IMG/VR virus record: IMGVR_UViG_3300030380_003294
Strand: one strand, 5' to 3'
Source of the DNA: a virus
Length of the DNA: 64,000 nt
How positions within the stretch are numbered: the stretch's first letter is position 1; each line of letters opens with the position of its first letter. Below, piece by piece: positions 5,250 to 26,700 of the stretch. The position numbers and the translations under genes are program-made. The notes under the pieces were generated by a model that was not told the origin of the DNA, searched no databases, and saw nothing but the letters and a program-made list of their open reading frames with translations.

Positions 5250-6629
5250 TTACATGAGGTTGGCAACTTGTACACGTCTGTAGTACTTGTTAGCATTCGC
5301 TGTAAGTGCACCAGAACCTTGAGTAAGTCCGCCTGAGAATGGGTTAGAGACCATGCCGTAACGAGTCTTGAAACCAATTTTTGGTTGGAAGGTGTTAGGG
5401 TTGATTGCTCTAACTTGCTGCAATGGAACGTAAGGGCAGTAGAATAATCCTGCGTCATAAGGAGAAGTACCCTTATAACCTGCAACATAGAAGTGCTTAT
5501 CAGCAACGTTAGCAGAGTAAGGATCAACGTAAACCTTGATGCGTCCGTTAAGAGTACCAACAAGAGTAGAGGAAGTATCGTCTACACCAGTTAAGGCGTT
5601 GTTACCCTGTAAACCAGGAGCATAGTCAAGGACACCTGCCATACCGAGAGCAGAAGCAACGTCTGCAGAGCAGATCAAGATGTTGCCCTTCCCGCGACGA
5701 GTTTGCTGACCGATAGCGTTAGCATCTCTTTCGATCTGGAACAGAAGTCCTTTGAACTTCTCAACAGACCATCTACCGTTTGAGTCAACATCGAGGTCGA
5801 AGATACCACCGTTAGCAGTATTGTTCTGAGCACCTGCAACAGCGTTAGTGTAGATGGTACGAACAACTTCACGGTTGATTTCAGCAAGGATCTCAGTTGA
5901 GAGAATGTTGCTCAACTCTTGCTCTGCATCAAGACCGTGAATTGCTTTCAAGTCTTGAGCAAGTTCGATGCTGTACTCTGCTTTCAACGCTCTTGCCTTG
6001 GCAGTTACAGTCACCTTCTCGATGGAGAAACCCATCTCTCTGAACGCAGTGTTAGATGCACTGTCGTCTAAACCTTCAACGGTTGAAGTAGACATGCCTT
6101 GAGCATCGCCTGTTAGTTCGTAAGTTCCAGGAGAACCATCGTTAAGAACAGCAGGGTTGTTGCCTTCAGCGTCGTTGTTTGCAGAACTGGAAGCACCAGG
6201 ATCGTAAGAAGAACCTGCACCACCAGAGAAACCTGCGTTAGGCTCATTGAAGAATGCTTCGTCGTAACCAGATGCGTTAGGATCTCTTTCGCTACCGTAG
6301 TTAGTACGCATCGCAAAGATAAGTCCAGTAGGACCTGTCATTGGTTGAACACCCGCGATGTCATAGGCGATCAACTGAGGCATTGATCTTCTGATCAATG
6401 AAATGAGCACTGGGTCGAAACCTGCAACAGGACCTGTGGCGGTGCTGCTACCAGTGTAACCAGTGGTTTGAAGAGTTTCAGAAAGAATCTGACCTTCTTC
6501 GATTTGTGCTTTTTCTTGGTTTTCTAAGAGTTGAGCGACAACACCTTTCTTATAAGAGTCACCGATCTCAGGGAGAGCGTCGTGATTAAGAACGGGTGCC
6601 CACTTCTCTTGTAGTTTTTGAACGGTCAT
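5250..6629 (-). CDS. g23: Major capsid protein gp23
   Basis: LQEKWAPVL, FDPVLISLIRR, GVQPMTGPTGLIFAMR, RALKAEYSIELAQDLKAIHGLDAE and FQPKIGFKTRYG. Confidence 0.99.
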   Translation of the reverse strand: MTVQKLQEKWAPVLNHDALPEIGDSYKKGVVAQLLENQEKAQIEEGQILSETLQTTGYTGSSTATGPVAGFDPVLISLIRRSMPQLIAYDIAGVQPMTGPTGLIFAMRTNYGSERDPNASGYDEAFFNEPNAGFSGGAGSSYDPGASSSANNDAEGNNPAVLNDGSPGTYELTGDAQGMSTSTVEGLDDSASNTAFREMGFSIEKVTVTAKARALKAEYSIELAQDLKAIHGLDAEQELSNILSTEILAEINREVVRTIYTNAVAGAQNNTANGGIFDLDVDSNGRWSVEKFKGLLFQIERDANAIGQQTRRGKGNILICSADVASALGMAGVLDYAPGLQGNNALTGVDDTSSTLVGTLNGRIKVYVDPYSANVADKHFYVAGYKGTSPYDAGLFYCPYVPLQQVRAINPNTFQPKIGFKTRYGMVSNPFSGGLTQGSGALTANANKYYRRVQVANLM

Positions 6630-6666: not shown

Positions 6667-7698
6667 TTATTTGGACCAACGAGCAATAGCGTCAACGTAT
6701 TTCGACATTGTGCCACTCGCTGTAGATTCTACAAGGGGTTCAGATGCTTCTTCGGTGGGTTCGCTTGCAGATTCTGCAATCTCAGCCTTCCTAGTGAAGT
6801 ATGATTCCTTGATAGTTTCGACTTTCTTACGAAAATCTTCTTCATTTTCAAACTCAACACCCTCTGCTAATGATGCTAACTTCTCCTTTTGGGTTTCAGC
6901 AAGACCAGTAGCACACTCGTACACGATTTCCATTTTAATAAAGTCACCAATCTGCTTGTTCAATGCAACATTGGTTTCGATTGTTTCGTTGAGTTTCGCT
7001 TCCATATCATCTAACTCTCCAACCATACCGTCAAGTAAGTTGAATTTTTCCTCAGGCACGCTAAAGTTGTGCTCAAGGAAAAGACTTTTTAGACCATTGA
7101 AGAATGACTCACTCATCTCAGTCTTAATACCGTGCTCGACCTGGAGTGCATTTTCCTTCATCCAGTTGTCAGCAGCATAAGATAAGTAATCATCAACCTT
7201 CTCGGCTAATTCTGTTTTGATTTTTTCGACTTCTTCAGTCAGAGACTCTTCAAATGCCTCTTGCAACGCTTGGACTTCTGCATTAACCTTTTCGGTTACG
7301 ACTGCCTCGAAGATTGTTGCTGCTCTGTTTCTGAACTCTTCTGAGAGTTCTTCACCAGCGACAAGAGCGTCAACATCTTGACTAAAGTCGTACTTGGTTT
7401 CAGAGATCGCTTCTTCGCCATCTTCGGTTTCCTCCATTTTAGCGGATGCGTCAGAAGGTTTCGTGCTAGGAACAGGTGCTTTCTTCACCGAACCCGAAGC
7501 AGATGCTCCTGCGTTCTTAGTTCCTTTCGCTCCTTCTTCTGAATCAGTGTTAACATCGATCACCTTAGGTGCACCACCTTTCGACGTGTCGATAGGGTCA
7601 CCAGGTTTTGCTTTCGCGTTAACTGCTGTTTTGGATTGGGTAGCACCTTCGGTCACTTCCTCCATGTTATCAAGATTTTTTTCGAGGGTCTCAGCCAT
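6667..7698 (-). CDS. g22: Prohead core scaffold protein gp22
   Basis: Acidic coiled-coil with LSEEF...AATIFEA and KVDDYLSY...WMKEN; lies between g21 and g23. Confidence 0.95.
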   Translation of the reverse strand: MAETLEKNLDNMEEVTEGATQSKTAVNAKAKPGDPIDTSKGGAPKVIDVNTDSEEGAKGTKNAGASASGSVKKAPVPSTKPSDASAKMEETEDGEEAISETKYDFSQDVDALVAGEELSEEFRNRAATIFEAVVTEKVNAEVQALQEAFEESLTEEVEKIKTELAEKVDDYLSYAADNWMKENALQVEHGIKTEMSESFFNGLKSLFLEHNFSVPEEKFNLLDGMVGELDDMEAKLNETIETNVALNKQIGDFIKMEIVYECATGLAETQKEKLASLAEGVEFENEEDFRKKVETIKESYFTRKAEIAESASEPTEEASEPLVESTASGTMSKYVDAIARWSK

Positions 7699-7736: not shown

Positions 7737-7744
7737 TATTTATA
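7737..7744 (-). promoter_or_regulatory. T4-type late promoter TATAAATA (g22/g23)
   Basis: Exact TATAAATA 38 nt upstream of the g22 start. Confidence 0.85.
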
Positions 7745-7746
7745 AA

Positions 7747-8391
7747 TCACAAACTCTTTAAAAACGACTCAAACGCGGAAACTTTGCGTTCTTGTAAGTT
7801 GATAAGGGTTGCGTGATCAATTTCTGTTTTAATTTGAGCAACAGTAGACTCTTTTAGAACTCCATTATCCCAAACCCACTCTTTACCTTCCATAATTCCA
7901 TCAACAAAAGCATCAGGTGCAGAAGGATCAGCAACAATATCTGCTGCTGTAGCGAGCATGAAGTCATCCATAACAACATTGCAGTTCTCTTCCTTACGGA
8001 TAGAACCCATCCCACGGGATGAAACACCGAGTTTTACACCCTCGTCTAGTAATGACTTGGCGACTTTACCCATAGGTGTGTCAAGTAGTTTCGCTTTACC
8101 AATGAAGTTGTTTCCATCTTCTTTGAGCGACATGATTTTATGTGATACCCTATCCAAGTTAATAGACGGACCATCAGGATGACCTAATTCTCCAAGGGCA
8201 CGCCCTTTTTGAATGTAGTTCTCATCATATTTAGCGACTTCTTTAGATAAAGTCTTGAGTGGATACATCCTATTGTTACGGTTTTTCAGTTCCGCTTGTA
8301 AGAAGATTCCCTCAATGAAGTAATTCTTCTTGCCTTCATTCTCTTCACAGAGAAAATCGACATTGTTAATCTCTTCAGCGATCAGTCTCAT
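7747..8391 (-). CDS. g21: Prohead protease gp21
   Basis: IEGIFLQ, NRNNRMYP, ALGELGHP, GVSSRGMGS and DIVADPSAPDAFV. Confidence 0.97.
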   Translation of the reverse strand: MRLIAEEINNVDFLCEENEGKKNYFIEGIFLQAELKNRNNRMYPLKTLSKEVAKYDENYIQKGRALGELGHPDGPSINLDRVSHKIMSLKEDGNNFIGKAKLLDTPMGKVAKSLLDEGVKLGVSSRGMGSIRKEENCNVVMDDFMLATAADIVADPSAPDAFVDGIMEGKEWVWDNGVLKESTVAQIKTEIDHATLINLQERKVSAFESFLKSL

Positions 8392-13335: not shown

Positions 13336-13343
13336 TATTTATA
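13336..13343 (-). promoter_or_regulatory. T4-type late promoter TATAAATA (g18)
   Basis: Exact consensus 46 nt upstream of the g18 ATG. Confidence 0.85.
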
Positions 13344-15231: not shown

Positions 15232-15440
15232 TGATTCTTTTTGTTAAAGTACTTGTTTATGACGTCTATCTGATCTTGGTATTTTGCAATTATATTCAAT
15301 TCAGTTTCAATCGCTTCTGTAATATCCGAGTGTTCTCCGATACCTGCAGGATTGGTTAAATAAACTTCTACGTTTGCAACATGCTTTTGAATATCTCCAT
15401 GTGCATGTGCAAGTAATGCTTTAATTAATTGCTCCCTCAT
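15228..15440 (-). CDS. Conserved hypothetical protein (70 aa)
   Basis: Start re-assigned to the ATG at 15440 (ATGA overlap with the pcyA stop); HVANVEVYLTNPAGIGEHSDI motif. Confidence 0.75.
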   Translation of the reverse strand: MREQLIKALLAHAHGDIQKHVANVEVYLTNPAGIGEHSDITEAIETELNIIAKYQDQIDVINKYFNKKNQ

Positions 15441-16192
15441 AATTTTGGTTTGTCGAATAATACCTGTTCTATATAGGTATTTGCCCAAGAGGTATCAAAC
15501 CACTGGGATAACACTGCTCTTGTTTTAGTGTTCTTTCTTTGTTGATTTACATAATAAAGTTGGTCATCATAACGTCTCAGTACATCCAACCACTCCATGT
15601 CTTCCTGAGATTCTCTGACCATCTGAGTGTATATCTTTATGTATTCCTTAGTACACTCATAGAACTTGTCAATTTCGCTACCGTTTTTCAATCTTTGAAA
15701 TTTGCAGTACGGTGAAAAGACATCACCCCACTCTGGTAAATGCCTTGGTTCAAAGTTATATTGATTACTTACATCACGAATGTCATCGTACATGTAGTCT
15801 AATTGTTTATGAAAGGGAGAGATATCTACAATAGCAGCAGTGACATTACCATTTGCAACTACAATATCACACCCAAAGACAGGTAGATCATATGAAGGAT
15901 CTGGCCAAAAGACAGAGTGAAGTATCTCTACATTAGGTGTGATTGCTCGTTCTAAATGTATGCGTCTCAATCCTTGACAAGTCCATAGACGATTGACTAT
16001 AGTCACACCATCTTTATGAACCTCAGAGTAATCTGAAACAACTTCCTCACATTTAGGAAGACCAATAGTTGCTGCCTTGATTAGAAGATCAAGTTTATAG
16101 CATGGTCCCGTGCTGTCTTCTAATCTCTCTAAGTTCGTCAAAGTTTTTTTGTTTGGTACCACCATCATATTCCCAGGCATAACCTTCGTCAA
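15437..16192 (-). CDS. pcyA: Phycocyanobilin:ferredoxin oxidoreductase PcyA (start uncertain)
   Basis: LRRIHLE, ILHSVFWPDPSYDLPVFGCDIV, AAIVDISP, LPEWGDVFS and QQRKNTKTRAVL: a ferredoxin-dependent bilin reductase of the PcyA type. Confidence 0.92.
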   Translation of the reverse strand: MTKVMPGNMMVVPNKKTLTNLERLEDSTGPCYKLDLLIKAATIGLPKCEEVVSDYSEVHKDGVTIVNRLWTCQGLRRIHLERAITPNVEILHSVFWPDPSYDLPVFGCDIVVANGNVTAAIVDISPFHKQLDYMYDDIRDVSNQYNFEPRHLPEWGDVFSPYCKFQRLKNGSEIDKFYECTKEYIKIYTQMVRESQEDMEWLDVLRRYDDQLYYVNQQRKNTKTRAVLSQWFDTSWANTYIEQVLFDKPKL

Positions 16193-16553
16193 TCATTTGT
16201 TCGTTTAGAGACATTTCTGCATCTCCAATATATAACCAACCTAGCAACCTACCATATTTACCGACACCACCTTTTAATTCTGTTCTAATTGAGAGTTCAT
16301 CTTCTCCGTCTATTGCCCCCTCAAGTTTCTCCTTAAGCCAGTTAGTTGCATCGATGCCCAGTTCTTTTTCTTCGAGGTCTCTTGTCCTTTTTTCTGGCGT
16401 ATCAACTCCTGCAACTCTAACTCTTTCTTTCTTGTATAAGTCAAACCCAAGATCAATGGTGACGTCAATAGTATCACCGTCAAGAACACGATTGATCTCC
16501 GTTACTCTGAAGTTGTAACAACTCTTCCTGCTTGGGGGTATCATCGCTGCCAT
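16095..16553 (-). CDS. Staphylococcal-nuclease (thermonuclease)-like protein
   Basis: VLDGDTIDV, RVAGVDTPE, GKYGRLLG and LNEQMIDEGYA. Confidence 0.9.
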   Translation of the reverse strand: MAAMIPPSRKSCYNFRVTEINRVLDGDTIDVTIDLGFDLYKKERVRVAGVDTPEKRTRDLEEKELGIDATNWLKEKLEGAIDGEDELSIRTELKGGVGKYGRLLGWLYIGDAEMSLNEQMIDEGYAWEYDGGTKQKNFDELREIRRQHGTML

Positions 16554-16882: not shown

Positions 16883-17122
16883 TTATTTGGGTTTATGGTC
16901 CTTCATGCCATCATGGTTACCGTCTCCTGGCAAAGCACCAGTAGCGATATAGGTGACAGCATCAACCGACCCCTGTAATCTGGTAAGATCAGAATCAAGT
17001 TTCACATATTCATCATATGCTTCTTTTAATTCTGCTTGTCTAGCAGTAAGTTGTTTGATTCTTTTATCAAAACGTTGTAGTAACTGCTGTGGACTTTCAG
17101 TTTCCTTAGGTCTAATTTTCAT
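16883..17122 (-). CDS. Small coiled-coil hypothetical protein (79 aa)
   Basis: Heptad pattern; ATGA overlap with the PTOX stop; resembles ORF 30167-30397. Confidence 0.7.
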   Translation of the reverse strand: MKIRPKETESPQQLLQRFDKRIKQLTARQAELKEAYDEYVKLDSDLTRLQGSVDAVTYIATGALPGDGNHDGMKDHKPK

Positions 17123-17628
17123 AGTGATAAAACTAATTTCATTGCCTGACGTAGTTCTTCTGCATGTTGCAGTTCATCGTCACGAATCGCCACTATCTTA
17201 GCATCGTCTGGATGACTTGTCAAGTATTGTTCATATGTATGTGCTGCATGGTGCTCGATCTGTTCATTTATGTGATAAGCATTTACTGGATCAACGAGGT
17301 AGTAAACAACCATAATCCAGTAATAAAGCAACACCAAGTGTCTGGCAAACGCTCTATCAACCCAATGGTCTGCACCGCCCCGACGTTCCATTTCCTCCAA
17401 GTGTTCTGTTTCATTTAGAGTTTGTGCAAAATGTTCTTTCATTAAATGTATATGTTCTGGTCCTCGTAAACCTAATGATTCACGAAAATGTAACACACTC
17501 ATAAAAGAGAAATAGGGTGCACGAGCAATCTCCTCAAGCACCCAAAATCTAGGTATGTCTCTCCCCCTGTAGAGATAATCTATGATTGTTACAGTGAGAG
17601 ATAGTATTAAATTGTTGATCCGTTTCAT
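17119..17628 (-). CDS. ptox: Plastoquinol terminal oxidase (PTOX / alternative oxidase family)
   Basis: RFWVLEEIARAPYF, NETEHL (ExxH), EQIEHHAAHTY and IRDDELQH (ExxH) di-iron ligands. Confidence 0.95.
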   Translation of the reverse strand: MKRINNLILSLTVTIIDYLYRGRDIPRFWVLEEIARAPYFSFMSVLHFRESLGLRGPEHIHLMKEHFAQTLNETEHLEEMERRGGADHWVDRAFARHLVLLYYWIMVVYYLVDPVNAYHINEQIEHHAAHTYEQYLTSHPDDAKIVAIRDDELQHAEELRQAMKLVLSL

Positions 17629-17629
17629 T

Positions 17630-17725
17630 TTAAAGTGTAGTATACGCTAATGGAAATAGAGTAAACATTGCTGTGCCAATTATACCAAATAAAATTGCTG
17701 CTGAAACGACTGTATGTCTTTCCAT
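17630..17725 (-). CDS. 31-aa single-TM peptide upstream of PTOX (possible NdhQ-like)
   Basis: Manual translation MERHTVVSAAILFGIIGTAMFTLFPLAYTTL; the stop lies 1 nt from the PTOX ATG. Not in the ORF track. Confidence 0.55.
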   Translation of the reverse strand: MERHTVVSAAILFGIIGTAMFTLFPLAYTTL

Positions 17726-17777
17726 AGTTGAACATATAAAGACGTAACTACTTATAATAGTAACTAAGTCTTTATAC

Positions 17778-18029
17778 TTAGTCCTGTTCGGATTTCCTGT
17801 TATTTCTTTCGTATTCTTCCATCAATCCTGCAATCATTCCACGACGATATTCCCATGTCTGTCCACTAGTAGAACCCTTACATGGATTGATACATCGTTC
17901 ATCACCATAATCATTACATACAAGTCCTGCTAGATCATGAGGACACCCTTCTTTTCCTGTAGACCAGAAGAGTTGTCCTCCCATCCATTTCGCATCACAC
18001 TTGGGACACACCTTTGTGGAGAAGTCCAT
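17778..18029 (-). CDS. Cys-rich hypothetical protein (possible metal binding)
   Basis: CPKC...GCPHDLAGLVCN...RCINPC: 6 Cys in 83 aa. Confidence 0.75.
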   Translation of the reverse strand: MDFSTKVCPKCDAKWMGGQLFWSTGKEGCPHDLAGLVCNDYGDERCINPCKGSTSGQTWEYRRGMIAGLMEEYERNNRKSEQD

Positions 18030-18064
18030 ACGTTGTTAGTCGAAGATCTATTGTCTATTATATA

Positions 18065-19333
18065 TCAACAATTCCAAGCACGCAAGGATTTGCTCAATCT
18101 ATCTTCACCTGTGTTATTTGATGGTTTCTGTCTCTTTCTCATACCTTTCATTCTTGCACAGAAGGATGCCCGTCTGGGATTTCCAACCTTCTTTGAAGGT
18201 GCTTTAAGGTCAGATCCTGGATTCTCTTTTTCATAAGACTTTCGTCCTTTTTCATTGAGTCCTCCTTCTTTATTCTGTCCTGACTTTTTTGTCCATGCTG
18301 CTCCTTCTTCGACATTAGTGGTCTCCTCTTTTTTTACGCAGCGGTTGTACGTTTTACCAAAAAGTTTTTGAGTGCCTTTTTTCTCATAACCTTTCCAACA
18401 CTTCTTCGCTTCTTCAAAGGAGGTTTCTTCTCTATTGTATGCAGGAACTTTAGCACCTTTCACACCACGACGTGCTTTGTGCTCTTCCCTACGCTTCTCA
18501 ATAGTTTTACCTCGTTTACCCTCAGGGTCAAACATGCCAGGATCATCATGCCCAGGTCCACTTCTTCTATAGTTTCTGATAGATGCTTTACCGTAATCGC
18601 TACGACCTTTATCTACCTTTGCTTCATTCTGCAGATTGTCTAAGTCATCTAATGCTTCACTAGACCAATACACTTCTGCTTCTTCATTCTTAGGGCGACA
18701 GTCAGGTACTAACTTACCACCCTTCATTTTCATACCAACTTTTTTATGTGTTTTCCAACATTCTGCTTGAAACTCAGAGAAAGTTTTGAGTCCTTCAAAC
18801 TCTTCTTTCTTACTCTTGTTTCCCCAATTCTTTGCACCAACTTTTCGGCATTTGACAAGTGCACCGCTTGCATAAGCACTTGGCCAAACTGAATAACGAG
18901 ACTTTACCTTATGGTAACATGCATCCTTTTCACCTTCCGTAATTTCTTTTTTTGAATTAAGATGTTTCTTAATACGGTCGGACTGACCTTTATGCATCTT
19001 GGATGCACCATCAAGTTCTTTGGATAATTTTTTTAGGTTAAGTTCTTCTGTGTTCACGTTGATTGCCTTACCTTTACGATCAGGATTCGGATCTTTAGCA
19101 TTCTTGCGACGGAATGCTGCTTCCTCCTCATCCTTATTTAGGTTGCGTTTCATTTTACTTGAACCGCACTTTGGTTTTGTGGTCTGTCCAGGTTGTTTGG
19201 CACAGGGTTTTCCTGCATATTTGCCACCGAGTTGAACCCAACCAGGCTTGCCATCACTAGACCTACTCTTGCCAAACCAGTCACGGAGAGAATTATCACC
19301 GCTTTTGTTTTCAACGATCTTTTCATTATCCAT
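18065..19333 (-). CDS. Highly basic modular protein; putative internal head polyprotein
   Basis: 422 aa of Lys/Arg-rich modules separated by acidic linkers ending in Glu; internal LKTFSEFQAE. Confidence 0.75.
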   Translation of the reverse strand: MDNEKIVENKSGDNSLRDWFGKSRSSDGKPGWVQLGGKYAGKPCAKQPGQTTKPKCGSSKMKRNLNKDEEEAAFRRKNAKDPNPDRKGKAINVNTEELNLKKLSKELDGASKMHKGQSDRIKKHLNSKKEITEGEKDACYHKVKSRYSVWPSAYASGALVKCRKVGAKNWGNKSKKEEFEGLKTFSEFQAECWKTHKKVGMKMKGGKLVPDCRPKNEEAEVYWSSEALDDLDNLQNEAKVDKGRSDYGKASIRNYRRSGPGHDDPGMFDPEGKRGKTIEKRREEHKARRGVKGAKVPAYNREETSFEEAKKCWKGYEKKGTQKLFGKTYNRCVKKEETTNVEEGAAWTKKSGQNKEGGLNEKGRKSYEKENPGSDLKAPSKKVGNPRRASFCARMKGMRKRQKPSNNTGEDRLSKSLRAWNC

Positions 19334-19985
19334 AATGGTATGCAGGTTTGTTAGTTTTACCTAGTTTGCCTTTTCTGACCTTTGTGCCAGAAGTTTCTCC
19401 AAAACCACCAGGATTTTTACCTGGTTTTGCTTTACCTAAAGTCATAGACTTATCAGGTTTTTTGTTCTCAGTATCATGAAGTCTAGCAGGTTTACCTGCT
19501 TTCTTAGTGATCACTGATTCTTGACCATGCTTTCTACCGAGACGACGCATGACCTTGCCGAAACGTCTCTTAGACATTCCCTTTCCAGGACTCGTTTGGT
19601 ATGAAACCTCACGTCCTGTACCTTCGCCTGATGAATATTTATATTCACCAACGCCTTTTTTGTATCCAATTCCTTTTTTCTTTAAATCTTTTTCGAGAGA
19701 CTTTCTACTTTCTCTGTTTTTCTTTTCGTCAGTTCCACGGTCAGCAGAAATATTGCCAGTCGTTTTAGACTGTGCTTTGGAAAGCATTCTTGTGGTAGGA
19801 TTGCCTTCAACTAGTTTGATAAAATCTTTGTAGTACATAACTTTTAGATTTTCTTTTTGTGCTAATTTATTTGCTGTTGCGTACATTACGCTTTTAGCAT
19901 CATCACCGTAAAGGCGTTTGAAACTTTTACCTTTACGTTTCATTGCCTTTACGATCTTTTCTGCTTTCTGGTTAACTGCGGGCAT
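19326..19985 (-). CDS. Basic protein with putative SAM-lyase (T3 SAMase-like) domain
   Basis: ISADR...N..SR..L...L, GVGEY-x10-E-V-S and LGRKHGQESVI match the recalled SAM-lyase pattern. The domain is preceded by MYYKDFIKLVE. The ORF itself is secure; the function is inferred. Confidence 0.6.
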   Translation of the reverse strand: MPAVNQKAEKIVKAMKRKGKSFKRLYGDDAKSVMYATANKLAQKENLKVMYYKDFIKLVEGNPTTRMLSKAQSKTTGNISADRGTDEKKNRESRKSLEKDLKKKGIGYKKGVGEYKYSSGEGTGREVSYQTSPGKGMSKRRFGKVMRRLGRKHGQESVITKKAGKPARLHDTENKKPDKSMTLGKAKPGKNPGGFGETSGTKVRKGKLGKTNKPAYHYG

Positions 19986-19986
19986 C

Positions 19987-20526
19987 TTAACCTCCGACTA
20001 CTTGAACCTCTTCAACAACGATTGCACCAGAACCTGCAGTAATTTTAACTGCACGCTTGACTACTGCTTGCTTACCAGAGTATGCATATGTGTAATCAGC
20101 AGAAGCACTAGATGAATCAACATCAGTGCTAATAGAGTTAGGAGTTACAGCAGTAACTTTCTTACCTACAGTTCCTGCAGATAGAAAGTTTGAATCGATT
20201 GCAGGAGATGTACCGTCATCTTCTACAGCGATGAAATCATCAACAGAGAATGGATGAGTGTTTGTCATCTCACCGATGTTAGTTCCAAGTTGATAATCAG
20301 CAGTACTATCATCTACTGCTTTAGTAATTCTTGCTTGACCAGGTTTTGCTCCTGACTTAAGTAGAAGTGCTTGATTTTGTACCAATGTAATAGCAGGTCC
20401 ACCGTTGAATGATACAGTAGATGCTGCTGCTGTAGCAAGCACTCTATAGTATCCAGTTTGCACTACTTGATATTCAGTTGCAGATCCTGCAACAGCGTTC
20501 GTACTTAATACTTTTAATACAGGCAT
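19987..20526 (-). CDS. Hypothetical, probable virion structural (beta-rich) protein
   Basis: 179 aa rich in Ala/Thr/Val/Ser; late box CCTAAATA just upstream (about 20556-20563). Confidence 0.7.
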   Translation of the reverse strand: MPVLKVLSTNAVAGSATEYQVVQTGYYRVLATAAASTVSFNGGPAITLVQNQALLLKSGAKPGQARITKAVDDSTADYQLGTNIGEMTNTHPFSVDDFIAVEDDGTSPAIDSNFLSAGTVGKKVTAVTPNSISTDVDSSSASADYTYAYSGKQAVVKRAVKITAGSGAIVVEEVQVVGG

Positions 20527-20538
20527 TGTCGTGTCGAG

Positions 20539-20967
20539 TTATTTCGTGTCCTTTTTATTTAGGTCCTTTTGCTGCTTCAACATTTTTTGCAACTCGGCAG
20601 TGCTACCAACAAACATAGTGTTAGTAGTATTGTTTACAATCTTTGTGTCGTCAGCATCAAGTTCTTTCATCTTCTTTTGAAGATCGATCAACTTATCTGC
20701 TACATCTCCCACATTTTTGATAAGTTGCCCTGCAACTTCATAAGCGCGAGGATGATCCGATGATCTCGCCACGTCAAGTATCCCATCAACTGCCTCCTGA
20801 CCTTTCATGACCAGATTATGTAGTTGTGCTCTACTTACTTCGTAGTCTTGCTTAACATCTTGTGTGTCGGATTTCTTAAGAGTTGGTTTTACATTCTCAA
20901 CATGTTTTTGCAATTCGGAGGGTTCTGCTCCGAATGCATCATTCAAACCACCAAACGGATCTGCCAT
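20539..20967 (-). CDS. g16: Terminase small subunit gp16
   Basis: DYEVSRAQL, HPRAYEVAGQLIK and FVGSTAELQKML. Confidence 0.95.
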   Translation of the reverse strand: MADPFGGLNDAFGAEPSELQKHVENVKPTLKKSDTQDVKQDYEVSRAQLHNLVMKGQEAVDGILDVARSSDHPRAYEVAGQLIKNVGDVADKLIDLQKKMKELDADDTKIVNNTTNTMFVGSTAELQKMLKQQKDLNKKDTK

Positions 20968-21998
20968 TAGATTGCCTCATCATTACCACTTACGAAGTTT
21001 TTCTTCTTCATATCTGTAAACTCAGATTTCATTTCACCGAAACCAAAGTCATCATCACTATCTATAAGATCGTGATCTGCCTGATCTACCTTGAATACGT
21101 TAGCACCACTAGCATGTGCACCTGCAGTAGTTCCTTCATGTGCTCTAAGAACAGATAGACTTGTACCTGATACTTTAGTAACTCTCATCAACTCAGTGCC
21201 AATGTAGATATTATCAGACTTAGCAATACCACTTGCATCAGCAACTGCAATCAAGTTATCATTAGTATCAGCAGCAGCAGATAGAGTTGTAACAACGACT
21301 CCATCTCTGTCTTGAATAGACTGAGGTGTTGCCTGATAACGTACTTCTCTTGGTGCTTTGTTGACGTCTGTATTCGAGTAGTAATCGACGCTTGACTTCT
21401 TGATAACCTTGGACTCTGTAACAGGACCGTATAGGTATGTCTTTGCAGTAAAGGATAATGTATAGATGATTGCTCTACGTTGTGAGAAGTCTCCCTCGTA
21501 GGAATCTTCATACTCAATATTGTTTAGTACAACAGGGATATCTCTAATTTCACTCATCTCAGGCAGTAACTTAACTGCAAGATTATAATGAGGTTGGAAT
21601 ACTGGTAAGATTTGTTCTAAGATTTGCAAACCATCTTCTTGATTCTTGGAGATGATTGCCAACTCAAAACCAATATTATATGGCACAGGCATAAACACAT
21701 TTTTGTTTTTTGTGTTTGAACTTGCGATTTTAATTTTCTGTGTAGGTGCTACCTTTCTAGCACTATCGTAATTAACACCAGTGATCTCAAACCCAATACG
21801 GGGTAGAGTAATTTGAACCCGTTTGTTTGTAGGGTCAGGTACTTGGTCTAGACGCGCCAGGAACTTATCTTTTGGACCATATGCCAAAGGCACCTTCATC
21901 ACTTCATCTTGACGACGAAGTTCGATATTGTTGAATAAAGTTCCAAACGCAACAATAGTCTTTCTGAATATTTCGTGGTATGAGTAGTTTCCTAACAT
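20967..21998 (-). CDS. g15: Tail sheath stabiliser/completion protein gp15 (with extra C-terminal domain)
   Basis: FGTLFNNI, VPLAYGPKDKFL, LPRIGFE, PVPYNIGFEL and QILEQILP. Confidence 0.95.
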   Translation of the reverse strand: MLGNYSYHEIFRKTIVAFGTLFNNIELRRQDEVMKVPLAYGPKDKFLARLDQVPDPTNKRVQITLPRIGFEITGVNYDSARKVAPTQKIKIASSNTKNKNVFMPVPYNIGFELAIISKNQEDGLQILEQILPVFQPHYNLAVKLLPEMSEIRDIPVVLNNIEYEDSYEGDFSQRRAIIYTLSFTAKTYLYGPVTESKVIKKSSVDYYSNTDVNKAPREVRYQATPQSIQDRDGVVVTTLSAAADTNDNLIAVADASGIAKSDNIYIGTELMRVTKVSGTSLSVLRAHEGTTAGAHASGANVFKVDQADHDLIDSDDDFGFGEMKSEFTDMKKKNFVSGNDEAI

Positions 21999-22924
21999 TA
22001 GATTGTTCCATCAGTTACAGATCCGACCGTTCCGAATGGATTTGTTTCGGTGAAGTCGATAATATCATTATCTAAAGTCTCAAAGTCATTATTCTGATCA
22101 AACTCTGAGTTAGTATTATTGATTGTATTATATGTAGCAGTTGTCCAAGATGCGCTGCTAGTGCCTCCTGTGATCGTCTCAGGGACTGAGAACGTACCAG
22201 AACGATTGATAACAATAAGAGTCCTAGTACCAGAGTCAAATGACTTAACTTCAGCAGTAACATTGGATGTACCACCAGTTACAGTTTCACCTGCAGTAAA
22301 TGTACCAGATCCTCCTGCTACCAGACCAACTGTAATCGCATTTGCGAACGCAGTCTCGATAGCATCCAGATCTGTAATACCAGTATTAATTTCCTCATCA
22401 CTGAATTCAAAGAGTTCACACTGACATTCCCAAACATAACCTTTACCTAATTGGTAGAAAGGTTTCTCTGCTTCTACAAATGTAATTGAGAACAGGTGTT
22501 TAGTTACTGGGAACCAGATTAAATCCCCTTCGTTCGGTCTTCCTTCGACGTTAAGCGTTGTAGAGTCGTCAACATGCTCTTTAAATTTTTCACGGGAGAA
22601 TATAAAAGTTGTCTTGTCTTCGATACGGACTCCAAATTTGCTAAGTAACTCACCTTGCCCTTCCCATCCTTCAACATTATTGACATATGCTCGGATAGGT
22701 TTCGCGCTTTCAAATTTTGAATCCGAGTCTTCTCCAAAGACTGTATCTTTGTTGACAATCGTTCTCGGAACATAGTAAATATCTTGCCCATAAATTTCAA
22801 TAGTTTCTACAATAAGATTTTCAATGAACTTTTGCTCTTGTGCAGAACCGTTAATGTTCAGTCTTGCACTATTGCTATAGTCTGATTGTACATAATCCTG
22901 TGCGGGAGTGTTGGAGATTGCCAT
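21998..22924 (-). CDS. g14: Neck protein gp14 (with inserted beta domain)
   Basis: IEIYGQDIYYVPR, LSKFG, RPNEGDLIWFP, PFYQLGK and DFTETNPFG. Confidence 0.95.
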   Translation of the reverse strand: MAISNTPAQDYVQSDYSNSARLNINGSAQEQKFIENLIVETIEIYGQDIYYVPRTIVNKDTVFGEDSDSKFESAKPIRAYVNNVEGWEGQGELLSKFGVRIEDKTTFIFSREKFKEHVDDSTTLNVEGRPNEGDLIWFPVTKHLFSITFVEAEKPFYQLGKGYVWECQCELFEFSDEEINTGITDLDAIETAFANAITVGLVAGGSGTFTAGETVTGGTSNVTAEVKSFDSGTRTLIVINRSGTFSVPETITGGTSSASWTTATYNTINNTNSEFDQNNDFETLDNDIIDFTETNPFGTVGSVTDGTI

Positions 22925-22930
22925 TTCGGT

Positions 22931-23737
22931 TTACCCTACCAAGTCTAAAGGTGGAAGTTCATATGTTGATCTAATCTGTTCTTCAAGATCTTTCTTGAAT
23001 TGACTAGCATCATCTAAAATTTGTCTACCATTTAAGGTAACACCGCCAAGCATTTGAATACCATCATACTTACTTAGGTTCCTTCCCCATTGCTGTTGAA
23101 ATAATGCTTCGACATAATCCTTCAACCAGTTGTCGTTAAACATGTTTGTATATGTTGTAGGATCTTGCCTCAATGACATTTCAACTAATAGAAAATCACC
23201 CGCTGTCAAATCTGCCCAATCCATATCAAGATATAATCTACCTTGATGCTCATTAAATCGAACTCTACGATCTCTTTGTGAGTTAGTAACCCAGTCAAGA
23301 GTCTCAAGATACTGTGAAGTTAAGAAGTAATGTAGAATGTGTCCATGCGTCATAGCATAGATGTCATTCAAAAAGATCTGATACTTGATGTTAAAGATAT
23401 TTCCAGGAACGATACTTGACGCACCGATCTGAGAATACACATGGTTTACACCTAAAGTTCCAGGTGGCAGATCAACATAATTGTTTTGCTCAAACCAAGC
23501 ACTACCACCTGCTTGTGTAGTTCCTTGTGCTGCAGTTTTGATAGCATCAGTCACCTCAATTTTCATAAAGGTTTTGTAACTACCATTGTAGTGATACTCT
23601 TGGTAGTAGTCGATTGCCTCTTCGATTAAATCATCTAGTTGCTCATCGGCAACGTTGATGTCAATCGTAGGAAATCCTAATCTACGAAGAGCATAGTTCT
23701 TTAGTTCTGTTTTACTTGCGGGTCTAGTAGCAGACAT
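22931..23737 (-). CDS. g13: Neck protein gp13
   Basis: LKNYALRRLG.P.I.INV, WLKDY and QWGRNLSKYDGIQMLGGVTLNG. Confidence 0.96.
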   Translation of the reverse strand: MSATRPASKTELKNYALRRLGFPTIDINVADEQLDDLIEEAIDYYQEYHYNGSYKTFMKIEVTDAIKTAAQGTTQAGGSAWFEQNNYVDLPPGTLGVNHVYSQIGASSIVPGNIFNIKYQIFLNDIYAMTHGHILHYFLTSQYLETLDWVTNSQRDRRVRFNEHQGRLYLDMDWADLTAGDFLLVEMSLRQDPTTYTNMFNDNWLKDYVEALFQQQWGRNLSKYDGIQMLGGVTLNGRQILDDASQFKKDLEEQIRSTYELPPLDLVG

Positions 23738-23743
23738 AACTTA

Positions 23744-26700
23744 TTAACTGAATGAGGATATGGTCAAGGCGGTAACATCATTAGCACTGACGACTTCTCC
23801 TTTCTTGAAGAATCCGTCAACATTATCAACAGTGACTTGGTTAGTTCCAAGGGCAGTGATAACACCTGTGGTACCAGAAGTAGCACCAGTAACGGTTGCT
23901 CCAACTTCCATCGTTGTGATGTCAGTAAGAGTTAGAGTTGCATTAGTTGCAACGGTAGCAGTATTCACTGTACCACCTGATCCTGGGTTTGATCCATCAA
24001 GACCAGTTGGTTGAACAATAGTGATTGTCTCACCAACAGCATAACCAGTTCCACCGTCATTGATAGTAACGTTGGTAATTGCACCTGCGGATGCAGTAAT
24101 ATTTACAACCAAACTTGCAGATCCAGAACCTCCAGTCGTTGCTAGAGCAGTTCCTGTAACATAATTTGATCCACCTGTCAAGGTTGCCAAGTTGAACGAC
24201 AATACTTTACCTGCATTGGCGTTAGTGATTGTAACTGTATCTGTGATCAGATAGTCACTACCACCTGCATTAACTGCAGCAGCAGTGATGTTTCCATCAG
24301 CATCGACTGTGGTGTCAACAGTCAATCCAGTTGCACCAGATGCAGCACCAGAGGTTGCAACTCCAGTAGCAGCAGAGAATCCTCCACCACCACCGACACT
24401 AACACCAGTGGTAACAACTGCACCAGGAGTAGGATCACCAGACAAGTTCAAAGTCAGAGTAGTGCTAGTTGCAAGGTTAGTTAACATTGCTCTTAGTTGC
24501 TCATACGCATTATCAAGTTTTGCTTGAACTCTTGCTTCAGTGTAGTACTGGTTAGTTCCTTCTGCAAGGTTTGTAGTAGTCTTCTCAGAAAGATCGAGGT
24601 TACCACCAGTCTGCAGAGCGACACGAGCGTCTGCCCTAGCATTTGTATAGTAAAGGTTTGTACCCTCACTAAGATCACTAGTAGACTTAGCAGCAAGACT
24701 GAGGTTTGCACCAGTTGCAGCAGCAACACGGGCATCAGCACGGGCGTTAGTAAAGTAGAGGTTTGATCCTTCAGTAAGGTTTGCAGTAGTCTTAGCAGCA
24801 AGACGTGTATCAAAACGTGCATCAGTATAGAAGAGTTTGCTACCTTCAGTGATGTTGCTAGTATTGATATCTGCTTGAGTAACAGATAGTTCACCACTAC
24901 CAGACAACTCAATACCTGTTCCGTAAGTAAAGTGTGTCCTTGTTCGAGCAGCAGTGGTGAACAGGTTGCTTGATCCTTCAGTTACGTTATCAGTATCAAT
25001 ATCTGCTTGAGTTACAGTCAGTGTGTATGTATTCGCAGCATCGTTATATGCCTTAGTAATACCAGTTCCTGCTGTGATAAGAGCATTTACTCTATCATCA
25101 ACTCTTTCGTCAGTGTAGTAAAGGTTAGATCCTTCAGTAATATCTCCTGTGTTAAACTCAGTAAAGTCAATCGCCAAGTCAGCAGAGGTAAGTTTTACAC
25201 CTTTGCCATATGTGAAGTGAGTTCTGGTTCTTGCAGCAGTAGTAAAGAGGTTTGAAGATCCTTCAGTTACGTTATCGGTATTGATATCGGACTGAGTGAC
25301 CGAGAGTGTATATGTATTATTTGTATCATCATAAACTCTAGTGATACCAGTGCTTGCAACGAACAGAGCATTGATTCTGTCATCAACTCTTTCGTTAGTA
25401 AAGTAAAGGTTAGATCCTTCAGTAAGATCACCAGTGTCATGATTTGAGATGTCAGATACCTGACCAGTTACATTACCTACTAATGCAGCAGTAATAATGT
25501 TAGCAGCAAAGTTACCAGATCCGTCTCTAATTACTAGGTTGTTAGCAGAGTTACTACTCGCACTAGCAACGTTAATTGTAGTATTACCAGAAACACCATT
25601 AGCATTAGTAAGGGTAATTCCTGAGGAAGCGGTGACTTGGAGAGTTCTTTGGGCATAAGTTCCAGTTCCTGTACGAACGACATATCCTGTTCCAGACATG
25701 GCAGCAAGACCAGTGCTATCAGCATCAACAAACGTTGTGTTGATAGTAGGAGCAGAACTTCCATCTACAGATACAGAACCTTGAACAACACCTGCAAGGG
25801 TGAATGTTCTAGCAGTCTTCCAAGCGTCAGCAGTAGATGCGTTTCCTAAGAAACCTGCACCCGAACCTGTGCCAGAAGCAGCAGTAATTTGATTAGCAGC
25901 AAAGTCACCAGATGCATCACGATTAACAACTGTAGAGACTGTTGCAGCAGTCGCAGTTGTCATACCATCTAGTAAGTCTGCGTTAAGATTATTAATTTTA
26001 TCAGTTGTTGGAATGACAAGAGCAGGACCAGATGATACCTGAGAGATAATCTGACCATCAACAGTTGCAGTTCCATCAACATTTAAGTTATTATCAATGT
26101 CAACAGATGTACCTGCACCAGTGACATGGATAGAACCAATTCTTAATGCACCGTCAGTACCAGTGAATACTTCAGAGGAGTTACTTGCACTAGTTAAGAG
26201 TGCAAATTCTGAAGAGGATCTGTCAAAACCAAAGAAACCGAGTTTGGCAGAACCATCAAAGTAACGGAATTCAACACCACGATCTTTACCATCGTTAGAT
26301 GAAGGTGCAGTGTCGCCACCAACGGTGATGATAGGATCATCGATTGTAGTGACAGTGCTGTTAATAGTAGAAGTTGTACCATTAACGGTAAGGTTTCCAG
26401 TAACAACAAGATCAGATTGTAATGCTGTGTCGCCTACAACAGTTAGTTGACCTTGTGATACAACATTACCATTATCAGTATCAACTGTAAACTTATCTAC
26501 ACCAGAACCATTTTGAACTTTGAAGAACTTATTATCTGCTGTGACAGTAACATTATCGTGAGTTACCAAACCTCCAGAAATATCAGCACTACTATTAAGA
26601 TCTAATGCACCAGTTAATTCAGTGCCACCATAAACTCTCAATCCTTCACCAACAGCAAGGTTCTTAGCAATACCTGCACCACCACTGAGACGGAATGCAC

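Follow-up and report, generated by a model that had tools for sequence, protein, structure and literature searches.

The window analysed here is the whole 64,000-nucleotide (nt) stretch of the virus record IMGVR_UViG_3300030380_003294 (IMG/VR), and its source is a T4-like cyanomyovirus. The gene of concern, called ORF219 hereafter, is an ATG-initiated open reading frame (ORF) of 219 amino acids (aa) plus stop at positions 19326..19985 on the minus strand, a strand left unstated in the original prediction for this locus, which proposed the product as a putative capsid-packaged S-adenosylmethionine (SAM) lyase. The product is unusually Lys-rich, as that prediction said, with 43 Lys and 14 Arg among its 219 residues, and its isoelectric point (pI) of 10.3 equals the basicity of the T4 internal proteins. 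Prochlorococcus phages P-RSM1 and P-RSM4 encode hypothetical proteins 90-91% identical to it, and with P-SSM4 and S-TIM4 included the orthologues range over 76-91% identity. It matches PHROG 12788 ('unknown function') with E 3.5e-119, and all the GenBank cyanophage records of the gene that were examined say 'hypothetical protein'. There are 322 homologues at E<=1e-3, and the best 120 of the 322 are 70-99% identical to it, most of them spanning the whole query. Most of the close homologues already carry a precomputed match to the Pfam family S-AdoMet_lyase (PF23780). The gene and its parts are located as follows.

19326..19985, minus strand: ORF219 coding sequence, 219 aa plus stop, pI 10.3
19991..19995, minus strand: GGAGG ribosome-binding site, 5 nt ahead of the ATG of M1, read directly from the sequence
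19839..19985, minus strand: N-terminal module, residues 1-49, a helical hairpin common to the N-terminus of S-SM1 gp115 (T4-GC119)
19806..19838, minus strand: leader or junction MYYKDFIKLVE, residues 50-60, resembling a capsid-targeting sequence (CTS) and ending in an L-V-E site of the type cut by gp21
19329..19805, minus strand: T3-type SAM lyase domain, residues 61-219, helix 63-73 plus a beta-barrel core that includes the Lys-rich C-terminal strands
19641..19649, minus strand: G113-E114-Y115, equivalent to Svi3-3 G56-V57-Y58; ribose packing and cation-pi contact with the sulfonium
19602..19610, minus strand: E126-V127-S128, equivalent to Svi3-3 E69/S71 and T3 E68; SAM amino group and ribose; E126 invariant
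19515..19523, minus strand: Q155-E156-S157, equivalent to Svi3-3 Q104-E105-S106 and T3 Q94-D95; Q155 invariant

How far can the product be assigned from its sequence? Residues 79-185 match PF23780 with E 7.2e-6 (26.4 bits), and residues 50-219 alone score 27.2 bits. When 1.8 billion representatives were searched, 105 relatives turned up; PF23780 is matched by 37 of 38 aligned family members, the best with E 3.1e-22, and every one of the ESM Atlas neighbours is named SAM lyase family. A single-protein phmmer search and a profile of close homologues (A1), both run against the PDB sequences, found no SAM lyase and gave only chance matches to G-alpha and L21e. A more divergent alignment (A2) was needed for this reason, and its family profile matches the T3 SAM lyase (7ock/8bb1) with E 7.4e-6 and Svi3-3 (6zm9) with E 0.01. 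The profile alignment pairs ISADRG with VSAFRS of T3, GxY with GCY, E126 with T3 E68, and Q155-E156 with T3 Q94-D95. The motifs on which the original prediction was built are all there, GNISADR-x6-N-x3-R-x2-L-x3-L at residues 77-101, GVGEY-x10-E-V-S at 111-128 and LGRKHGQESVI at 149-159, and the T3 motifs it cited (VSAFRS, GCY-x10-E, QDCVL) are borne out by aligning with PDB 7ock. Among 38 aligned sequences, and again among 56, with identity down to 24%, the sole invariant columns are G113, E126 and Q155, while the position of Y115 is Y, F or W across the family and E156-S157 is present. These three residues equal G56, E69 and Q104 of Svi3-3. Exactly Gly56, Glu69 and Gln104 are strictly conserved in active SAM lyases, where all of them bind SAM (Guo et al. 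2021, PMC7877911), and Tyr58 and Glu105 accompany them in Svi3-3 (PMC7877911). In the T3 enzyme, E68 and Q94 are the catalytic pair that has been mutated. Another Pfam family, DUF3293, is matched by 18 of the 38 family members (best E 7.4e-6) and weakly by ORF219 itself (E 0.013), and to judge by these matches it may be related to the SAM lyase fold.

The structural comparison points the same way. The AlphaFold2 model of ORF219 has a predicted local distance difference test score (pLDDT) of 77, rising above 90 in the core, and when it was compared by Foldseek with 350,542 chains the top five were all SAM lyases. By VIA-align, the model matches the T3 SAM lyase (8bb1_E) with Z 13.4 and a root-mean-square deviation of 2.9 A over 127 aa, at model residues 72-219, and Svi3-3 (6znb) with Z 8.0; a comparison with these two enzymes had been proposed beforehand as a check, and the structural match was found. 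The best unrelated chain reaches Z 6.9, and the SAM-AMP lyase 9gad Z 5.1. Since the match spans residues 72-219, the Lys-rich 'tail' is part of the nine-stranded barrel of the T3 type. The T3-type barrel is a monomer in its complex with MetK, and Svi3-3 forms a trimer by domain swapping, its active sites lying at the subunit interfaces; the ORF219 model is nearer to the closed barrel of T3 (Z 13.4 vs 8.0), and the enzyme, as modelled, is probably monomeric.

Compared with the T3 SAM lyase (gp0.3; PDB 7OCK, 8BB1), ORF219 thus has the same fold, the alignment taking in 127 of 147 residues and covering the C-terminal barrel strands, and the same order of motifs (VSAFRS/ISADRG, GCY/GEY, E68/E126, Q94-D95/Q155-E156), at an identity of only 14-16%. 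The likeness to Svi3-3 (PDB 6ZM9, 6ZMG, 6ZNB) extends to G56, Y58, E69, S71 and Q104-E105-S106, which are G113, Y115, E126, S128 and Q155-E156-S157 in ORF219, with QES identical. By analogy with T3, the chemistry (SAM to methylthioadenosine and homoserine lactone) and the use against SAM-dependent defences would be expected to be alike. The differences lie elsewhere. The T3 enzyme is the first early gene of a podovirus, whereas ORF219 lies in the late structural block of a T4-like myovirus; unlike the T3 enzyme, it is strongly basic and carries an N-terminal extension of 60 residues made of virion-protein and CTS-like elements. The SAM lyase assignment of the original prediction is therefore borne out by sequence profiles, by fold and by the conserved substrate-binding residues. 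Membership of the SAM lyase family is settled, it is almost certain that ORF219 has the lyase fold, and homology, fold and invariant residues together make it highly likely that the protein is an enzymatically active SAM lyase.

Then what is the segment directly ahead of the enzyme? The CTS of T4 is MKTYQEFIAE (PMC8442874); its positions 4 and 7 serve targeting and its positions 8 and 10 processing, and gp21 cleaves after L/I-x-E (PMC9026906). In ORF219, Y52, F55, I56 and E60 align to these positions 4, 7, 8 and 10. Across 19 homologues there is no change at Y52, D54, F55, I56 and E60, and the residues between the aligned positions are variable, D54 excepted. L58-V59-E60|G61 fits the gp21 site and is located in a low-confidence linker; the model has pLDDT below 50 at residues 48-60, as expected of a flexible linker. 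A cut is predicted after E60, and the mature N-terminus would read GNPTTR. The string MYYKDFIKLVE|G that the original prediction singled out is present at residues 50-61, and what it said of this string has to be divided. The resemblance to the capsid-targeting sequence and the gp21-type L-x-E site stand, as a conserved and family-wide motif; the motif does not begin the protein, being internal (residues 50-60) behind a module of 49 aa. A metagenomic variant of ORF219 does begin at MYYKDF, with stop codons upstream. To judge by the motif, ORF219 would work like a CTS protein; it is not assigned to the T4-type CTS-bearing internal head proteins, because the motif is internal here and N-terminal only in orthologues. 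With IPI, IPII and IPIII, which are internal proteins of T4, it shares the leader aromatics at positions 4 and 7, the aliphatic residue at position 8 and the Glu within L/I-x-E, as well as a basic cargo, gp21 and gp22 in the same genome, and the anti-restriction logic (IPI*). Unlike them, it has another module in front of the motif and a longer spacer (I-K-L-V-E vs I-A-E), and its cargo is an enzyme of a known family, while that of T4 is a stoichiometric inhibitor; packaging and cleavage of ORF219 are predicted by this analogy.

The comparative picture is the strongest argument, on the sequence side, for a capsid-targeting reading of the leader. Stand-alone members of the family nearly all start with a leader of the type MKTF/YxEF(I/L)xE: gp114 of P-SSM2 starts MRTFQEFLQLCE|GG, the SAM lyase gp48 of Paraglaciecola GD virus 1 starts MKTFSEFLGE|SG, and metagenomic members start MKTYQEFMLE... 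or MKTFNEFISE|SS. In polyprotein forms (435-763 aa, with the domain at the end) the leader motif is internal and directly ahead of the domain, as in TYKEFIAE|GN, KTYREFIAE|GN and LKRFSDFIQE|GN, and it was found in 24 of 36 such forms. The strict form of the leader motif was counted in 36 of the 73 family members, vs 0.2% of shuffled controls. Is the leader confined to SAM lyases? A DNA pattern for M-K-T-F/Y-x-E/Q-F/Y, which recovers ipI, ipII, ipIII and gp61.1 in T4 as a positive control, found 5 true ORF starts in P-SSM2 and 10 in GD virus 1 (vs 1 in the control), encoding otherwise unrelated proteins, almost all of which carry (I/L/V)-x-E at their positions 8-10. An ORF scan of Paraglaciecola Antarctic GD virus 1 gave 14 leader-bearing ORFs, eight of them, gp48 included, clustered at 24-27.5 kb; the 13-14 unrelated ORFs with a start of the form MK(T/S)(F/Y)xx(F/Y)(I/L/V)xE are a candidate set of injected cargo. 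The isolates with leader-bearing family members are all large myoviruses, and Peptidase_S77 was present in 5 of 5 carrier phages tested.

Some single occurrences of the leader may be recorded here. Beyond its cluster, GD virus 1 has leader ORFs at 6388, 7805, 20162 and 53022, the last with a 2H-phosphoesterase-like HxT motif. Two neighbours of SAM lyase genes bear the same leader, PSSM2_115 (P-SSM2 100269-100529), which starts MKSFKQFLEE|A, and SSZBM1_192 (S-SZBM1 122628-123125), which adjoins the SAM lyase gene and starts MKTFKQYITE|A. In P-RSM1, a 385-aa ORF (about 84485, minus strand) starting MKKFSAFLSE|AE is the sole clear N-terminal CTS-like leader found. T4 gp61.1 (NC_000866 18966-19130), a hypothetical protein of 54 aa, starts MKTFKEFIKE|D, with the leader as in ipI-III, and may on this ground be an unrecognised packaged peptide.

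Evidence from virions comes from relatives. S-CREM2 gp6, 'SAM hydrolase (virion protein)', belongs to the ORF219 family (37% identity over 117 aa, E 3e-13) and likewise to a T4-like cyanophage, and it was detected in purified virions by mass spectrometry in 2023, with 19 unique peptides and 26% coverage (PMC10665884). Its authors proposed its entry into the host as a means against restriction, and connected it neither with a signal for targeting nor with processing by gp21 (PMC10665884). Its leader reads MKDFDSFLEEF...SLEE|SS. Unlike ORF219, it has the domain at the N-terminus, followed by a C-terminal extension of 270 aa, and its gene lies elsewhere in the genome, beside a DNA methylase and nucleases. 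The families that flank ORF219 are also found in virions: T4-GC119 (13 counts) and T4-GC403 (60 peptide counts) were both identified in purified virions of S-SM1 (Sullivan et al. 2010, Suppl. Table 8), T4-GC403 being among the better-detected proteins there.

The setting of the gene in the window bears on its expression. Other features that matter here are listed below.

20539..20967, minus strand: gp16, small terminase subunit
19987..20526, minus strand: DUF7243 protein (T4-GC403), between gp16 and ORF219
18065..19333, minus strand: ORF422, Lys-rich, with several two-Cys modules (CWKGY...C type) and DUF6321 at the end
7747..8391, minus strand: gp21 prohead protease (Peptidase_S77), E 4.3e-32; presumed processing enzyme
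6667..7698, minus strand: gp22 scaffolding core protein (T4_CASP), E 2.2e-79
7737-7744, 13336-13343 and 19636-19643, minus strand: TATAAATA late-promoter boxes

The genes of the minus strand run gp13, gp14, gp15, gp16, DUF7243, ORF219 and ORF422, followed by small ORFs, PTOX, an SNase-like nuclease, a bilin reductase, gp17, gp18, gp19, gp20, gp21, gp22 and gp23. From gp13 to ORF422 they abut, all on one strand. The TAA stop of the DUF7243 gene lies at 19987-19989, the start of ORF219 is 1 nt past it, and ORF219 and ORF422 overlap by 8 nt; by this arrangement, ORF219 is probably translationally coupled with the upstream gene. No ribosome-binding site comparable to GGAGG was found ahead of M50. 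The original prediction placed the gene next to the terminase, which is right as far as it lies near the small terminase gp16; one gene (DUF7243) stands between them, and the large terminase gp17 is 4.3 kb downstream. No minus-strand terminator was found in 17000-24500, and a scan for sigma-70 promoters and terminators gave nothing exceeding the shuffled expectation. The T4-type late-promoter box occurs three times on the minus strand of the window, a count not above chance. Two of the boxes (7737-7744 and 13336-13343) are just upstream of gp22 and gp18, and the third (19636-19643) covers the GEYKY codons of ORF219, about 300 nt ahead of ORF422. The window also encodes gp21, gp22 and gp23, the last with a plausible L-S-E propeptide site; gp22 is the presumed docking partner of the leader, a role taken from the literature by analogy with T4.

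The N-terminal module and ORF422 suggest how the locus came about. In the model the module has helices at 3-17 and 19-46 (pLDDT 52-68), and many cyanophages, as well as Pelagibacter phage HTVC008M, have it by itself. ORF422 is homologous to the body of S-SM1 gp115, the T4-GC119 virion protein, and S-SM1 has one uninterrupted T4-GC119 gene at the place of ORF219 and ORF422. Because the N-terminal module and ORF422 match two parts of gp115, the locus looks like a T4-GC119 gene split by an inserted cassette of leader plus lyase. ORF422 contains an internal CTS-like LKTFSEFQAE and starts MDNEKIVE|N, and from these motifs it looks like a polyprotein cut by gp21. An equivalence of ORF422 with S-SZBM1_190, a virion protein of 424 aa, was considered and rejected on comparison.

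The reading to which we lean, on balance, is that ORF219 is a late protein of three parts, a virion-type helical module, a degenerate CTS or processing motif and a complete T3-type SAM lyase, and that it goes by way of the capsid into the next host. Its packaging into the head is fairly probable, given the comparative support, and by analogy the enzyme is probably delivered along with the DNA, so as to weaken those defences of the host that depend on SAM. The scenario would be as follows. ORF219 would share a transcript, and be coupled in translation, with the genes for neck, terminase and virion proteins, and its N-terminal part would bring the basic precursor into the scaffolding core that gp22 forms in the prohead. 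There gp21 would cleave after L58-V59-E60 in the flexible linker, so that a 17-kDa enzyme starting GNPTTR would stay in the head with the DNA and enter the cell together with it at infection. The enzyme, as homology, fold and invariant residues suggest, would convert SAM to methylthioadenosine and homoserine lactone by means of G113/Y115, E126 and Q155-E156-S157. In analogy to T3, SAM-dependent defences (type I/III restriction and BREX-like, i.e. bacteriophage exclusion, systems) would then be weakened before any phage gene is expressed. A broader proposal is more tentative, and we put it forward as a possibility slightly on the doubtful side: marine T4-like phages may use the junction x-(T/S)-(F/Y)-x-x-(F/Y)-(I/L)-x-E|G/S, both N-terminally and between Lys-rich polyprotein modules, to load a changeable arsenal of enzymes that is freed by gp21. 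The block of DUF7243, ORF219 and ORF422 would be the cyanophage counterpart of the T4 internal-protein loci, with ORF219 delivering a ready-made SAM lyase.

Several points weigh against the packaged-and-injected reading. The CTS-like motif of ORF219 is internal and has a spacer two residues longer than that of T4, for which CTS function has been demonstrated only at the N-terminus (PMC9026906), and the leader might instead be a helix with a structural role, or mark a junction where modules were shuffled. P-RSM1, the closest complete relative, has only 1-2 other leader-bearing ORFs, so the leader 'code' is weak in this lineage. No TATAAATA box lies directly upstream of ORF219, the nearest one being inside the gene. 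S-SZBM1_194 (707 aa), which ends in an ORF219-type domain, is missing from the 30 proteins of the S-SZBM1 virion proteome, a negative that is weak because Lys-rich proteins are poorly seen after trypsin digestion. As to the enzyme, the PF23780 score of ORF219 itself (26.4-27.2 bits) is slightly below the curated cut-off of 28, and the MetK-binding N-terminal tail of the T3 enzyme (M1-N9) has no recognisable counterpart. The MetK-contact residues of T3 are reported to be conserved only among close T3 relatives, and the contact is for this reason not a defining feature of the family.

What else might ORF219 be? It might be an active SAM lyase that stays out of the head and acts in the cytoplasm at a late stage of infection, in which case this subfamily of enzymes would have the leader only as a helix or linker at the N-terminus; the enzyme might then stop the methylation of progeny DNA, or redirect methionine, methylthioadenosine and polyamine metabolism. 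The evidence for the enzyme is identical under this view, the internal motif, a ribosome-binding site that serves M1 and the undetected S-SZBM1_194 agree with it, and the gp16-gp17 region of cyanophages holds many metabolic genes (PTOX, bilin reductase, plastocyanin). It is nevertheless unlikely, since many unrelated proteins of these phages begin with this leader, as do ipI-III of T4, and the leader-bearing family was found only in phages that encode a T4-type prohead protease. Moreover, peptides of the homologue S-CREM2 gp6 were plentiful in purified virions, and the genes on either side of ORF219 are from virion-protein families. A further explanation accepts packaging and takes the protein as a basic internal head protein, mainly structural (DNA condensation, charge neutralisation) or acting on another SAM-derived substrate such as the SAM-AMP of type III CRISPR. 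A pI of 10.3 with 26% Lys plus Arg, like that of the T4 internal proteins, and the linkage to a Lys-rich modular virion protein are in line with it, and SAM-AMP lyases share the fold (Z 5.1 vs 9gad). Yet the residues that stay invariant over about 25-90% identity are exactly those that bind SAM, and catalysis on a SAM-like substrate is therefore favoured; the match to the T3 SAM lyase fold (Z 13.4) is also far above that to the SAM-AMP lyase. We regard this explanation as rather improbable. The insertion history raises one more, that ORF219 is a decaying remnant, the SAM lyase cassette having split the T4-GC119 gene into ORF219 and ORF422 with a product that has no selected function. This would be consistent with the uninterrupted gene of S-SM1 where the window has two overlapping by 8 nt, and with an architecture that is highly variable between phages. 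It is very hard to reconcile with a family of 322 homologues whose best 120 are 70-99% identical and mostly full-length, with long invariant stretches in the core, or with intact catalytic residues and a good ribosome-binding site, and we consider it highly improbable.

How much of this is new? Names now in Pfam and the ESM Atlas are enough to place the protein in its family, and the virion association of one distant homologue has already been published. In the literature on CTS in cyanophages or a packaged SAM lyase, the S-CREM2 paper was the only one found, and we found no paper that links the SAM lyase family to the CTS/gp21 system of T4 or describes CTS-like leaders in cyanophages. If the packaged-and-injected reading is true, ORF219 would be the first phage-injected counter-defence enzyme that destroys a metabolite. 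The advantage would be one of timing: in T3 the SAM lyase gene has to be expressed before all others, while a capsid-borne enzyme would act ahead of any transcription. It would also imply that SAM-dependent defences are an important pressure on the abundant picocyanobacteria of the ocean and their phages. The leader would offer a simple sequence rule to predict injected cargo among the 'hypothetical' proteins of marine T4-like phages, and natural leaders and junctions could be used to load foreign proteins into T4-like phages of hosts other than coli. The ORF219 gene can be named now as a SAM lyase family protein.

The gap between gp16 and gp17 is a known hyperplastic region of cyanomyoviruses. 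In the window, the following genes also lie in it.

17119-17628, minus strand: PTOX
16095-16553, minus strand: SNase-family nuclease (PF00565)
15437-16192, minus strand: bilin-reductase-like ORF

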